A stretch of 64,000 bases of DNA from Alphaproteobacteria bacterium (GCA_964291215.2 OZ219791.1:160001-224000); one strand, 5' to 3'; counted from the stretch's first letter, positions 16,373-54,662 are shown. Notes: a model not told the origin generated them from the sequence alone. Numbers and translations are program-made.

Positions 16373-17743
16373 CAGGGTGATCTTACCCCAAGTTGGCATT
16401 TTTTTGCGTCAGTTGGAGCCAAAATTTATGCGGCTGCCTCACTTAGTATATCATATGTTGGTGTTTTTTTATATTGCCTACTATATTTTTGATTGCGTGT
16501 CCGGGAGGGTCGGTGTAGTGTCGGGATATTGCCAATTCGCTCGACCCCGCCGCCAAACCCGGTATATCTGGAGCCTCGTCAACACAAAAGCCTCCAGACA
16601 ACATGTTCATCAGGGCAACCAAAACCCGCAGCACCGCAGACGGCAAGCCCGTCCACAGCCCGTGCTTTCTCAACGTATCGGCGACAAGGTCAGGCAGCGC
16701 ACCCTGCCTCGCCACCGACTATCCGATGGCGCGCAAGAACTGGAAGGAGGTTGCCGCCGAAGCGCTACTCCACGGCCACCCGCCGCTGTTCGAAGCCGCG
16801 TGCAGGCCGCAGGACATCGTCAACAGGGGCCCGGAGGTTCCGCGCCGACGCTCCGGAGGAAGACGCACGCAAATTGCGACCGTCAACCTCGACAGCCTCG
16901 AGAACCCGCGCCCGGTCGGCTGCCTGTGCCTCGAGACGCGATCTCGGCTTCACGACCTCGCGAGTGCGCTGATCGTCGCCAGGATGATCCGCCAGCGAGC
17001 GCTGGCTGCGCGATGACAGCGCGGCCGCGGAGCTTCTGGAGCGCAAGGCGCGCAAGACGCTGTACCGCATCGGCGACCTGCGTCACCGGGCCGCCAGGAG
17101 CTGTTCAACCGCGAGCGCGCGCTGCATCCCCGATACCATCGCCTTTTACGACCTGTTCACGGCCGCGCCGACGGCAAGCTTCCCCGCTTCGGGCGCTCGA
17201 AGCGCAACGATTGCCCCACGCTTGCGCGGCGCGGGCTTTCCGCGCAGTTGCGAGGTCTTGCGGGGCAACGTGAGCGAATCGGGCACGGATGCGCTGCTGA
17301 GGCTGGAGGCGGGCCCGGCGGCAAAGCCGACGACAGTCATGGACGCCGGCACCGAGGCGAACATCGCGTGGCTGGGCGAGCACGGCTACGGCTGAATCGC
17401 GGGCGGCGCCGCCCGAGGGTGGGCCCGAGGCTGATCACCAACCACGAAGTGCAGGCGCCTTGCCAGCGAGGATGGCGCGGCGTGGTCAGCGAGAGCAGGA
17501 AGAGGGCCGAGGACGCCATTCCTGGCCGCAGGGCTTCGAGACGGCAAAGCTCCACCTCTGGGCCAAGGGCCGGCGCCGCGACAAGGTGCCGGAAAGCGGT
17601 CTCGAGCAGCGCTTCTCCACCGTCGCCCGGCACTGCGAGATCACCGTCGAGAAGGCCGGCGCAACGGCCGTGCGCTTCAGCCACAGACGACAAGACAACG
17701 CGGGCGCCTGCGCACCAGCGACCGGGAGACCGTCCTTATATGA

Positions 17744-18918
17744 CTAGTGTTATGTCAGCAATGATATGTCGTACATTTGGTGCTAGACTGTCCATCCATT
17801 CGGGATGGAGGTCGGAGTATGAAACGCTACGTGGTGACCCTGGACGAGGCGGAACGGAAAGAACTTTCGGAGATCACGACCAAGGGCTCGCACCTGTCGC
17901 AAAAGGTAATCAACGCCCTGATCCTGCTTAACTGCGACGAGGGCGCGTTCAATGAATGCCAGATGACCGGGAAGGTCATTGCCGAGATTCTGCGCATCAG
18001 CATGCGCAAAGTAGACCGGGTGAAAAAGCGTTTCGTTGAAGAGGGGTTGGAGGCGGCATTGGGTGGCCGGCAAGGACGCCGTCCTACCTACATGCGAAAA
18101 GCCGACGGCGTCTTCGAGGCGCGCTTGGTGGCCCTGAGTTGTGGTGAACCGCCCGAGGGTTACGCGCAATGGTCGTTGCGGCTGCTGGCCGACCGCGTTG
18201 TTGAGCTTGGTTACACCGTGTCACACGAGACGGTGCGGCGTGTTCTAAAAAAAACTGCATCAAGCCATGGCAGCGGGTTGGGTGGGTAATTCCTCCTCAA
18301 GGGAATGCCGACTTCGCCGCGGCGATGGAGAAGGTGCTCGATGTCTATCGCCGTCCCTATGATGCCGCCTTCCCCGTGGTCTGCATGGACGAAACGCCCC
18401 GACCGGCGAGACACGGCAACCGATCGCCATGGCGCCGGGACGGGCGTAACGACTACGAGTATCGACGTTGCGGTACCTGCAACGTCTTCATGGAACCCCT
18501 GGCCGGCAAGCGCATGACCAAGGTAACCGAGCGCAAGATCGACTGGGCGCAGTTCCTGGCTGACATCGCCGAGCGCTACCAGGATGCTACCACCATCACC
18601 CTGGTGATGGACAATCTCAACACTCCCCGGCGCCTTCTATGAGGCCTACCCGCCGGACGAGGCCTTGTGGGACCGCTTCGAGTTCGTCTACACCCCCAAG
18701 CACGGCAGTTGGCTGAACGTGGTCGAACTCAACGTCATGATCCGCCAGTGCCTGAACCGCCGCATCGACTGCATCGAGGTGCTACGCCGGGAAGTTGCCG
18801 CTTGGCAGGCCTCCCGCGACCGCATTCAGGCCAAGGTGGATTGGTAGTTCACCACCGACGATGCCCGCGTGAAACTCAAACGTCTTTATCCGACATTTGA
18901 TGAATGACAAGACACTAG
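17744..18918 (+). mobile_element. IS630 type B, copy 2 (least decayed)
   Basis: CTAG both ends; ORF A 17819-18289 nearly intact, A8 slippery site, DDE half frameshifted. Confidence 0.92.
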
Positions 18919-18999
18919 GTTTTGTCCCCTTGATGATGAAATCATCCACAGCAGTTGGGGGCGGGAAAATGTGGATAACCTCGACTATGGGAGAGCTAT

Positions 19000-19185
19000 G
19001 GTTGCAAAGAGATTCCGCTCCCCTGTGTGAGAACGTACAGGGGAGCGGGGATCAAACGATCTCCGCGGAGATTGCCGTTCCGTCCTTGGCTTTATAGAGC
19101 CGTTCCCGAGCGTGGCAACCTCCTTTGGCGTCCCTTGCGTCCTGAATGGATGCTTGGGTTTGAACCGTATCATCATAAGGCGAGG
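19000..19185 (+). ncRNA. Putative IS110 bridge RNA (copy 1); boundaries approximate
   Basis: Stem GGAGATTGCC/GGCAACCTCC encloses CCGTCCT and TCCCGAG matching the insertion site; ATGGATGCT and ATAAG match the donor junction. Confidence 0.8.
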
Positions 19186-20725
19186 AACGATGGTCAAGGT
19201 AGTAGCAGGGGTCAGCCAGTCTGGACATCTGGGGCGTCGTTTTACGAACGACGCCACGGGCACGTGGCTTCGCAGCCTCGAGGTAACCCGTGTGGTGGGC
19301 GACAGGCCGCTATCACCGCAAGGTTCACCAGTGTCTTCATGACCGGGGCTTCGAGGTTGTCCTGCCCGTTGAGGGCTTCGCCAAGGCTTTGGGCCAACCG
19401 CGTTGACGCGTTGATGCTGGCCAAGATCGGCACGGTGCGATCTCGAGCCTGTGGCTCCTCAGGAAGCCTTCCTCAACTGCCTGGGGGATCTCCTGGCGCC
19501 GCGCTTGTCGACATGCGGACCAAGTTGAGGCAAGTGGCAGATGAGGTGGATGGCGAGACCGTCACAAGGGCTTCGGCGGCCGATCTCGATGACCGCATTG
19601 CCGGCGCGGCGATCAAAGCGGTGATCGCCGGTGATCCCGAGCAGAGGTACCCTGACCTCGATCCCCGGTCCAGTGACCGCCGCAGCCCTTCTTTGTTGGA
19701 TGCCCGAACTCGGCAGTCTCGACCGTCGTCAGGCGGCAGCCTTGATCGGGGTGGCGCCGATGGCCAACGACAGTGGCCACGGTGCTCGGCATATCCGAGG
19801 CGGGCGCCGGAGGCCACGTGATCTCCTGGCCGCGACCTCGGCAGCACGCTTCAACGCGGATCTGGTGTTCGAACGCCACAAGACCGCCGGCAAGGCCCAC
19901 AAAGTCGCCATTGTCGCCGTGATGCGCAAGCTCTGGCGAACACCTTGCTGCGACAGCAGCGTTGCTGGTCGACCGAAGCACCGGTGAGTGAGCGAAGGAG
20001 ACACGGCCCTCACCCCTGCCGAGAGCGCGATCGGGACTGTATCGACAGTCTCCCTACTACGACACGACTTGGGGAGAATGTCTGCAGATCATCGTCGAGG
20101 CCGACATCGAGGAGATCGAACCGCCTTGGGACACCTGGAACCCGGACGGTCACGTGCCCGGGGGCGGCAAGGTAGCCGCGTTCACGTGACCAATGGACGG
20201 CAACCCGCCGCCGGGACCACAAGCTTCATGTCGCCTCGCTCGCAGGGCAAATCCCACACCGCTTGTGGACAACCACAGAAAATATCACCGCAGACACCCG
20301 CAAAAACCTTGCCAAGAAACATGGATGCTCGGGACATGGATCACGGATATCGAGGCCACCTTCCGTTCATTGAAATCCGAGCCCGGATTGCGCCCGGCCA
20401 GCGCATCGCCGCTCACCTGTTGATCGCCGTGCTCGCCACGGTGCATCTGATCCCCGCGCGGGGCATCCACAAGTGCTGGACATCAATCCGCGAGAGCATC
20501 TGGATCAGGGTCACCACGCGCCTGCGCGCATTGATCGTCAACCGACAGGACACGCACCGCCGAGGTTGCCGAAATCTCCTCGGCGGCTGGTGTCGAACCC
20601 GCCGCACGAGGAGCCGCCTCGCAAGCTGACAGAATTCAACGGAATGTAGTGCCATGTTGAAATCGGCCGACAAAAAATCGCGCAACGTGAGAAAAATTCC
20701 AGGCCGCAAAAAGTGCCAACTTGGG

Positions 20726-53360: not shown

Positions 53361-54662
53361 AGCATCCATGTTTCTTGGCAAGGTTTTTGCGGGTGTCTGT
53401 GGTGATGTTTTCTGTGGTTGTCCACAAGCGGTGTGGGATTTGCTCTGCGAGCGAGGCGACATGAAGCTTGTGGTCCCGGCGGCGGGTTGCCGTCCATTGG
53501 TCACGTGAACGCGGCTACCTTGCCGTCCAGCGTCTCCGGGCATGGTAACGTGACCGTCGTCAATTGGGTTCCAGGTGTCCCAAGGCGGTTCGATCTCCTC
53601 GATGTCGGCCTCGACGATGATCTGCAGACATTCTCCCCAAGTCGTGTCGTAGAGGGAGACTGTCGAGACAGTCCCGATCGCGCTCTCGGCAGGGCCGTGT
53701 CTCCTTCGCTCACTCACCGGTGCTTCAGGCAACGCTGCTGTCGCAGCAAGGTGTTCGCCAGAGCTTGCGCATCACGGCGACAATCGCGACCTTGCTTGCC
53801 GGCAGTCTTGAGGCGCACCAGGTCCGCGTTGAAGCGTGCCGGTTGCGGCCAGGAGATCACGTGGCCTGCCCGCCACGGATGTGCCGAGCACCGTGGTCGT
53901 TGGCGCCACCCCGATCAAGGCTGCCGACGCTGCCGAGTTCGGGCATCCAGCAAAGAAAAGCCGTGGCGGTCACCGGATCGAGGTCAGGATGGCGTAGCTC
54001 TGCTCGGGATCACCGGCGATCACCGCTTTGATCGCCGCGCCGGCGGTCATCGAGATCGGCCGCCGAGGCCCTTGTGACGGTCTCGCCATCCACCTCATCT
54101 GCCACGCGTCGACAAGCGCGGCACCAGGAGATCCTCCAGGCTCTTGAGGAAGGCGGAGCCACAGGCTCACCGTGCCAATCCTGGCGTCGACGCGGTTGGC
54201 CCATCGCCTCGGCGAAGCGCCCGCAACGGGTTGACGAGAATAACCTCGAAGCCCCGGTCATGAAGACACTGGTAAACCTTGCGGTGATAGCGGCCTGTCG
54301 CCCACCACCCGGCTCACCCCGAGGCCGCGAAGCCACCTGCTCGTGGCGTCGTTCGCAAAACAATGCGCCAGATGTCCAGACTGGCTGACCCCTGCTACTA
54401 CCTTGACCATCGCTCCTCGCCTTGTGATGATACGGGTTCAGGCATCCATGCGAGGGACGTCAAGGGAGGTTGCCAAACTCGGACGCGGCTCTGTCAAGGT
54501 CAAAACGGCAACCTCCGCGGAGATCGTTTGATCCCCTGTGCGTGTTCGCTCAGGGGAGCGGAATCTCTCTGCAACCATAGCTCTCCCACAGATCCACATT
54601 TTCCCGCCCCCAACTGCTGTGGATGATTTCATCATCAAGGGGACAAAACCTGGTCATATAAG
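53361..54662 (-). mobile_element. IS110 family element, copy 2 (pseudo)
   Basis: Colinear with copy 1; CT cores; removal restores ISAs1 codons EHAMTSVERASP. Confidence 0.9.
54415..54570 (-). ncRNA. Putative IS110 bridge RNA (copy 2, eroded); boundaries approximate
   Basis: Perfect GGAGGTTGCC/GGCAACCTCC stem enclosing TGACCT and GTCCGAG; CATGGATGC donor match. Confidence 0.7.

Follow-up and report, generated by a model that had tools for sequence, protein, structure and literature searches.

Decayed IS110 copies with predicted bridge-RNA guides that match sites in other mobile elements of an alphaproteobacterial genome

Why do two IS110 elements of the same genome, both with a wrecked recombinase gene, sit in different transposase genes, and why do short variable sequences at their left ends resemble these insertion sites? 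The question is raised by a window of 64,000 nucleotides from an Alphaproteobacteria bacterium (GCA_964291215.2 OZ219791.1:160001-224000), in which an earlier note had recognized two sister copies and proposed that their bridge-RNA guides were naturally retargeted within one genome. Very likely, these are dead copies of an IS621-like IS110 element whose predicted bridge-RNA guides, mutated and probably shuffled, match fixed sites in mobile elements; at least for the copy-1 clade, later insertion was probably fed in trans.

Anatomy of the copies and of their family

Copy 1 begins with the CT at 17735, ends with that at 20329 and is split by an IS630 after its first 12 bases; copy 2 lies on the minus strand. 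They have a common scaffold and differ in their guides and in many short deletions, which wreck the recombinase genes of both (29 deletions with 259 nt in all in copy 2). The features of the window, counted from its first nucleotide, are:

16387..20725, plus strand: IS1634-family host of copy 1, decayed and split by the IS110, with inverted ends at about 16387 and about 20725
17728..17736, plus strand: left target half GACCGTC and CT core, start of copy 1 (read from the sequence)
17739..17744, plus strand: TATGAC, -10-like hexamer of the predicted circle-junction promoter (read from the sequence; putative function by analogy with IS621, from the accessible part of PMC11208160)
17747..18915, plus strand: IS630 (1.17 kb) within copy 1 at CTAG, with TA duplicated at 17745-46 and 18916-17
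18942..18978, no strand: two inverted DnaA-box-like 9-mers, kept in relatives (sequence comparison)
19045..19187, plus strand: predicted bridge RNA core of copy 1 with 5' hairpin, target-binding loop and donor-binding loop (folding)
19080..19086, plus strand: left target guide CCGTC-CT of copy 1 (loop parsing)
19104..19110, plus strand: right target guide TCCCGAG of copy 1, reverse complement CT-CGGGA (loop parsing)
19146..19154, plus strand: left donor guide ATGGATGCT of copy 1, which reads ATGGATG-CT (fold)
19169..19179, plus strand: right donor guide of copy 1, with ATAAG at 19175-19179 (sequence; covariation with the donor in relatives)
19190..19987, plus strand: IS110 recombinase pseudogene of copy 1 (PF02371 in the 3' fragment; 315 aa in the intact orthologue)
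20004..20125, plus strand: remnant of a second ORF, deleted, with approximate limits (95-96 aa in intact relatives)
20309..20329, plus strand: right end of copy 1 with -35-like TTGCCA, left donor ATGGATG and CT core (sequence)
20330..20334, plus strand: right target half CGGGA of copy 1 (sequence)
53361..54662, minus strand: copy 2, whole element, inside an ISAs1 at CCATGAC-CT-CGGTC (sequence; NF033564)
54497..54502, minus strand: left target guide TGAC-CT of copy 2 (sequence)
54478..54484, minus strand: right target guide GTCCGAG of copy 2 (loop parsing)
54418..54460, minus strand: donor-binding loop of copy 2, shortened by deletions (fold, alignment)

The guides and junction strings quoted earlier for the two copies were all recovered in place, and the junctions can be read directly in the sequence, GACCGTC-CT / CT-CGGGA for copy 1 and CCATGAC-CT / CT-CGGTC for copy 2. 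Also the proposed hosts were confirmed, namely IS1634 (the empty sister copies match NF033559) and ISAs1 (NF033564), the latter with an N-terminus that is presumably DUF4338-like. Empty sites read left-CT-right, both in empty alleles of the genome and in a contig joint across copy 2, and a target duplication beyond the 2-nt core is absent. The IS630 in copy 1 sits just past the -10 box and cuts the predicted bridge RNA off from its promoter. Within its first 15 nt, and there mostly at the CTAG after the -10 box (17744-17747 in the window), the left end is a hotspot for insertions of IS630 and other IS, which are found in about 10 of 65 left ends; many copies read CCAG at this place.

The genome of 6.15 Mb (2 contigs) contains 65 left-end and 71 right-end BLAST hits of the family; a stricter motif search gave 49 intact left junctions and 68 right ends, and a full recombinase ORF is present in none of the 65 copies. 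A tree of 55 element bodies, built without the guides and with many inner branches unresolved, has a copy-1 group of 16 copies with the guide CCGTC/CGGGA, a copy-2 clade (support 100/100) with 32 copies and, besides these, five copies that are older and longer. The supposed sibling pair thus does belong to one IS110 family, but the copies represent two clades, and copy 2 is a mosaic. Among 40 related genomes, a recognisable relative with a left end was found only in G001, whose left junction was not found, and 400 genomes of the class gave just one partial hit.

Intact orthologues of 315 aa are present outside this genome. One of them, P0002, is 88% identical over the window fragment, matches PF01548, PF02371 and NF033542 above cut-off, retains the DEDD residues and the serine that align to the catalytic positions of IS621 (E 2e-28 to IS621), and has IS621 and ISCro4 as its only PDB relatives. 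Members of the IS1111 group have a non-coding RNA downstream of tnp and long subterminal inverted repeats; this assignment was considered and rejected, as the guide-bearing RNA lies upstream of tnp in the family described here. All features of membership that can be read from sequence were found, and a classification as IS621-like bridge-RNA IS110 is well supported. The only two full PF01548 matches of the assembly were rejected as source of the enzyme, as they belong to an unrelated 425-aa IS110. At C1:480856 and C1:884303 (L051, L052), apparently intact IS110 transposases of about 425 aa are found, which belong to another subgroup, are low-copy and have no frameshifting deletions.

The intact relatives are 1.8-2.0 kb long and encode a second ORF of 95-96 aa downstream of the recombinase (L011:2181-2468, also in L016 and L019), which is followed by 1-4 palindromes of the GGTAACGTTACC type. 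This ORF has 337 homologues and a confident all-helical model; it matches no Pfam or NCBIfam family, only unnamed Atlas clusters, and a comparison of the model with PDB folds gave nothing at or below E 0.001. That it may be an autoregulator which binds the palindromes is a guess. Inverted DnaA-box-like 9-mers lie close to the left end of L011, L016, L019, L024 and L025, with a single one close to the right end; those of copy 1 (18942-18978) are termed so on the basis of TTATCCACA, which is taken here to be the DnaA box consensus, and a control by a host factor is possible.

Predicted bridge RNA, its guides and their targets

When single sequences are folded, a 5' hairpin is obtained together with a target loop and a donor loop; the z-scores are weak (-1.5, -1.9), and the target guides are placed in an internal loop that surrounds a short inner hairpin. 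In a consensus fold of copy 1 and seven relatives, 9 of 51 pairs change on both sides and both target guides are unpaired, and in the target stem of copy 1 each arm has lost 5-6 nt with the pairing retained. No Rfam match for a bridge RNA was obtained in 6 loci. As to the donor loop, 34 of 41 donor guides in this genome match or wobble with the joined ends over the 5 nt of CTTAT, one fits CTTGT and six mismatch; in the four relatives that have the CTTGT donor variant, it is paired with a guide ACAAG or GCAAG in every case. The earlier statement that the donor guides of copy 1 match the circle junction holds; the last 5 nt of its right donor guide pair with CTTAT, and a further ATGA could pair past a one-base bulge. 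The right donor guide of copy 2, ACAAG, fits a CTTGT donor and not its own CTTAT. When the ends of copy 1 are joined, the string TTGCCA-17 nt-TATGAC does arise as had been noted, and hexamers and 17-nt spacing are conserved in L016 and L019, although the -10 hexamer TATGAC misses the last T (score 4/6). The circle junction string occurs 0 times in the assembly and was not found among the contigs of three public runs. A promoter scan of the integrated left end of L011 found none, as would be the case for a promoter that arises only when the ends are joined.

From the genome, 60 loops were parsed (two further loops failed, and the left flank of C2_742093 was excluded as doubtful), and these contain 17 guide pairs. 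The guide columns vary by 0.72-0.78 bits, as compared to 0.03-0.27 bits in the scaffold, and at least four of five flank positions are matched in 33 of 43 copies on the left and in 51 of 55 copies on the right side. In a permutation with rows collapsed to one per site, the left guides matched 3.63 versus 2.63 of 5 positions (16 sites) and the right guides 4.31 versus 2.98 of 5 (13 sites), and none of 20,000 shuffles reached the observed value on either side. Five intact relatives, which come from G041, G042, G043 and one metagenome contig, have 50 guide bases in all, and 42 of these fit the flanks; this is the best of 120 pairings and a low figure, since the guide of one relative was parsed one base off. 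The collection of genomic copies, their folding and the covariation analysis, which had been proposed as a check, thus support the bridge-RNA reading, as guides follow their flanks beyond chance and lie unpaired in loops, and by the same comparison of guides and flanks it is likely that there was a natural retargeting onto other transposase genes.

This tracking holds overall, but 10 of 18 copies at the ISAs1-A site, among them copy 2, have a right guide that belongs to another site, and at the CATCAC site two of three left guides are not cognate. That the guides of each copy fit its own site is true for copy 1, whereas the right guide GTCCGAG of copy 2 matches its own flank in 6 of 7 positions and fits a second ISAs1, at its CT-CGGAC site, without mismatch. 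Conversion between copies, an RNA of a sister copy acting in trans, or half-match recombination, as reported for IS621 in the accessible part of 10.64898/2026.08.31.748434, could each suffice to bring about such non-cognate guides. At C2:3385611, C2:2862756, C2:1488756 and C2:1496753, each copy has its left flank from one host and its right flank from another, which points to half-match events or to rearrangements between IS110 copies.

Most targets fall in other mobile elements. In this genome, IS1634 (13-14 copies), ISAs1-A (21), three ISAs1-B sites (11, 5 and 1), ISNCY (3), IS630 (1) and a few single-copy sites are occupied, and another occupied host (4-5 copies) is presumably an IS4-like element. 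The ISAs1-A site and one of the ISAs1-B sites are homologous codons, and in one copy both guide changes that suit this ISAs1-B site are present. Targets in relatives include an rve integrase, an IS3-type element at its left end and a group II intron at its 5' end, where an Rfam hit lies at a distance of 25 nt; a further target is assumed to be the codons of the ADLNAA motif of TnpB, and one next to a reverse transcriptase presumably resembles domain V of an intron. Among the intact relatives, those directed against the TnpB codons and the ends of group II introns are L025:1134, L011:883 and L024; with such targets, an RNA-guided element would disable other RNA-based mobile elements. One of four copies in G041 has a partial match and lies in a methylase gene. 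In the accessible literature, no paper was found on a guide radiation within a genome or on IS110 elements aimed at TnpB or introns; supplements may tabulate such targets.

Filling of sites, spread of broken copies and short deletions

A perfect 11-nt target is kept in 1 of 14 empty hosts of the IS1634 type, 7 of 23 of ISAs1-A, 5 of 22 of ISAs1-B and 1 of 9 of ISNCY, and of nearby control 11-mers, which overlap and are not independent, 0 of 276 were as depleted. Two other sites are unsaturated, with a perfect target in 19 of 35 and 4 of 9 empty hosts. Of the perfect IS1634 sites, 13-14 are filled and one is empty; where a site is one mismatch off the copy-1 guide, just one host of 32 is filled. 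In all 45 pairs compared, which come from 10 loci, the IS110 copies nested in IS1634 diverge less than their hosts (medians 1.4% versus 5.9%; for two hosts, other insertions inflate the value), and 2-6 substitutions separate deleted copies at three non-homologous sites from those borne by IS1634. Dead copies that are younger than their hosts have likely moved in trans, and the sequence divergences, together with the near-identity of dead copies, argue for a repeated insertion, probably of already broken copies; for clade 1, these data favour a non-autonomous movement, with gene conversion as the rival. An intact recombinase of this subfamily, as the source of the enzyme, is absent from the assembly. 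In three public runs with the deleted copies of this genome, there are also contigs that equal the intact element L011 of G041 (L011:860-2880), and one of the runs contains the L011 flank; an intact relative thus occurs in the same communities, which suggests a route of exchange, not an enzyme in the same cell.

By analogy with IS621, the element would circularise at its CT core and thereby join the right-end -35 to the left-end -10, and the joined promoter would transcribe the left-end RNA, the donor loop of which would read ATGGATG-CT-TAT and the target loop about 5 nt, CT and 5-7 nt. Guides would have been varied by point mutation and were likely shuffled between copies, and insertion would have filled nearly all perfectly matching host sites and left mismatched hosts empty, which is the pattern that is seen. 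At least the copy-1 clade likely continued to insert after its recombinase gene broke, presumably because an intact copy outside this assembly provided the enzyme in trans.

A possible, if rather doubtful, alternative is that all copies inserted intact, that gene conversion later spread deletions and mosaic guides, and that dead copies never moved. Deletions and guide alleles indeed combine in mosaics, the nearest neighbours of copy 2 change along its length, and the enzyme in trans was not found in the assembly, but the equally repeated IS1634 hosts are less homogenised and clades 1 and 2 remain distinct. It is very unlikely that a few single insertions were copied passively with their host IS, and that guides match flanks due to shared descent. 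Some occupied hosts are near-identical, and about 10 ISAs1-A copies have in common a deletion that destroyed the left junction, for which passive duplication or conversion is needed; against this, the guide match survives the collapse to one row per site and holds across genomes, distances are alike for occupied and for empty IS1634 hosts (0.039, 0.044, 0.041), the nested copies are younger than their hosts, and the empty hosts are depleted of perfect targets. Passive copying is thus largely refuted for IS1634 and a partial explanation for ISAs1-A.

The preference for mobile elements could also be a survivor bias in an IS-rich genome from which insertions in host genes were purged, and the abundance of IS copies, the few insertions at single-copy sites and the methylase insertion in G041 would be in line with that. 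This is unlikely as well, as the guides themselves match conserved mobile-element motifs in five intact relatives from four sources, and since selection on the guides would still be the cause, such a bias would alter the why and not the mechanism. It is hardly credible that repeats which collapsed in the assembly have produced the deletions and the mosaic guides as artefacts: the assembly is uncurated and has many near-identical repeats, but the host genes are intact, and contigs of the three public runs carry the deleted alleles gap-free and the long alleles as variants. As the source sample may be among these runs and none of the pieces covers an entire copy, the phase of guides and flanks lacks independent confirmation. 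Guided insertion into other mobile elements, at least in the copy-1 clade probably by dead copies in trans, is the preferred explanation.

The short deletions are a separate, unexplained lead, and could represent a new way of disabling repeats. Among the copies listed, the IS110 recombinase genes have 15-29 deletions per copy, mostly of 5-7 nt or multiples thereof and at shared positions, and the 5-7-nt peak is found also in six other IS families that were sampled (44-76% of distinct indels). Window elements with this signature are those at 17747-18915, 16387-20725 and 53361-54662. In comparison with the genes of G004, there are 20 such deletions in 261 kb of single-copy matches versus 84 in 44 kb of multi-copy matches, a contrast that could be due to selection on single-copy genes or to a repeat-directed process; the IS copies of G004 itself show no such peak in the 400 kb sampled. 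Microhomology at the deletions is only modestly enriched, no sequence motif at their ends was seen by eye, and Argonaute (PF02171) and Ku (PF02735), considered as causes, were not found in this genome. Bacterial pseudogene deletions are described in the accessible part of PMC6054270 to follow a power law with a 3n excess, and thus a 5-7-nt peak is atypical; in the accessible literature, no paper on such a peak was found. In a bolder scenario, which is rather improbable, a specialist parasite of mobile elements with fast guide evolution and shuffling would spread in trans as dead copies and drive the escape of host targets, and the bacterium would answer by an undescribed repeat-directed process that puts 5-7-nt deletions into all high-copy elements and spares single-copy genes.

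Relation to known systems

The bridge-RNA mechanism of IS621 and the targeting of transposase genes by ISEc21 are already published. As far as described in the accessible part of PMC11208160, and with the structures PDB 8WT6 and 9T56, the element resembles IS621 and ISCro4/IS622 in its DEDD and serine recombinase of about 315 aa, in its CT core, in the left-end RNA with two loops of left and right guides and the junction promoter, all predicted here, in the discontinuous pairing of the right donor guide and in the covariation of guides and targets. Unlike in IS621, the left end is 317 nt long with an extra hairpin and the DnaA-box-like 9-mers, the left guide has only 4-5 nt plus core and the right guide up to 7, there is a conserved second ORF with palindromes in a long right end, and many guide alleles occur in one genome in which all local copies are dead. 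In ISEc21/ISMch6, an upstream non-coding RNA targets codons near a catalytic residue of an IS3 transposase, and a relative with changed guide bases occupies a changed target (accessible part of PMC11187229); in contrast, one subfamily is here aimed at many element classes (IS1634, ISAs1, ISNCY, IS630, an IS3 end, TnpB and group II introns), and saturation and escape are visible among host copies. For MITEPpu9, a transposase-less unit derived from the IS110 element ISPpu9, movement with an enzyme in trans has been proposed (PMC12288879), but these are short modules at REP sites, whereas the copies described here are near full-length and riddled with small deletions. Cargo-bearing IS110 elements exceed recombinase and RNA in size, according to the accessible part of 10.64898/2026.08.14.744561; unlike such variable plasmid cargo, the extra ORF found here is a fixed 95-aa family without a Pfam match.

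The mechanism is thus known, yet this genome constitutes a natural experiment with one family, 17 guide pairs and dozens of filled and empty targets, from which specificity and guide evolution can be read directly. The intact relatives offer a compact recombinase, an uncharacterised partner ORF and naturally tested guides, some of them directed against TnpB or group II introns. What distinguishes this case from the known systems is the guide radiation within a genome, the saturation pattern and the deletion signature.
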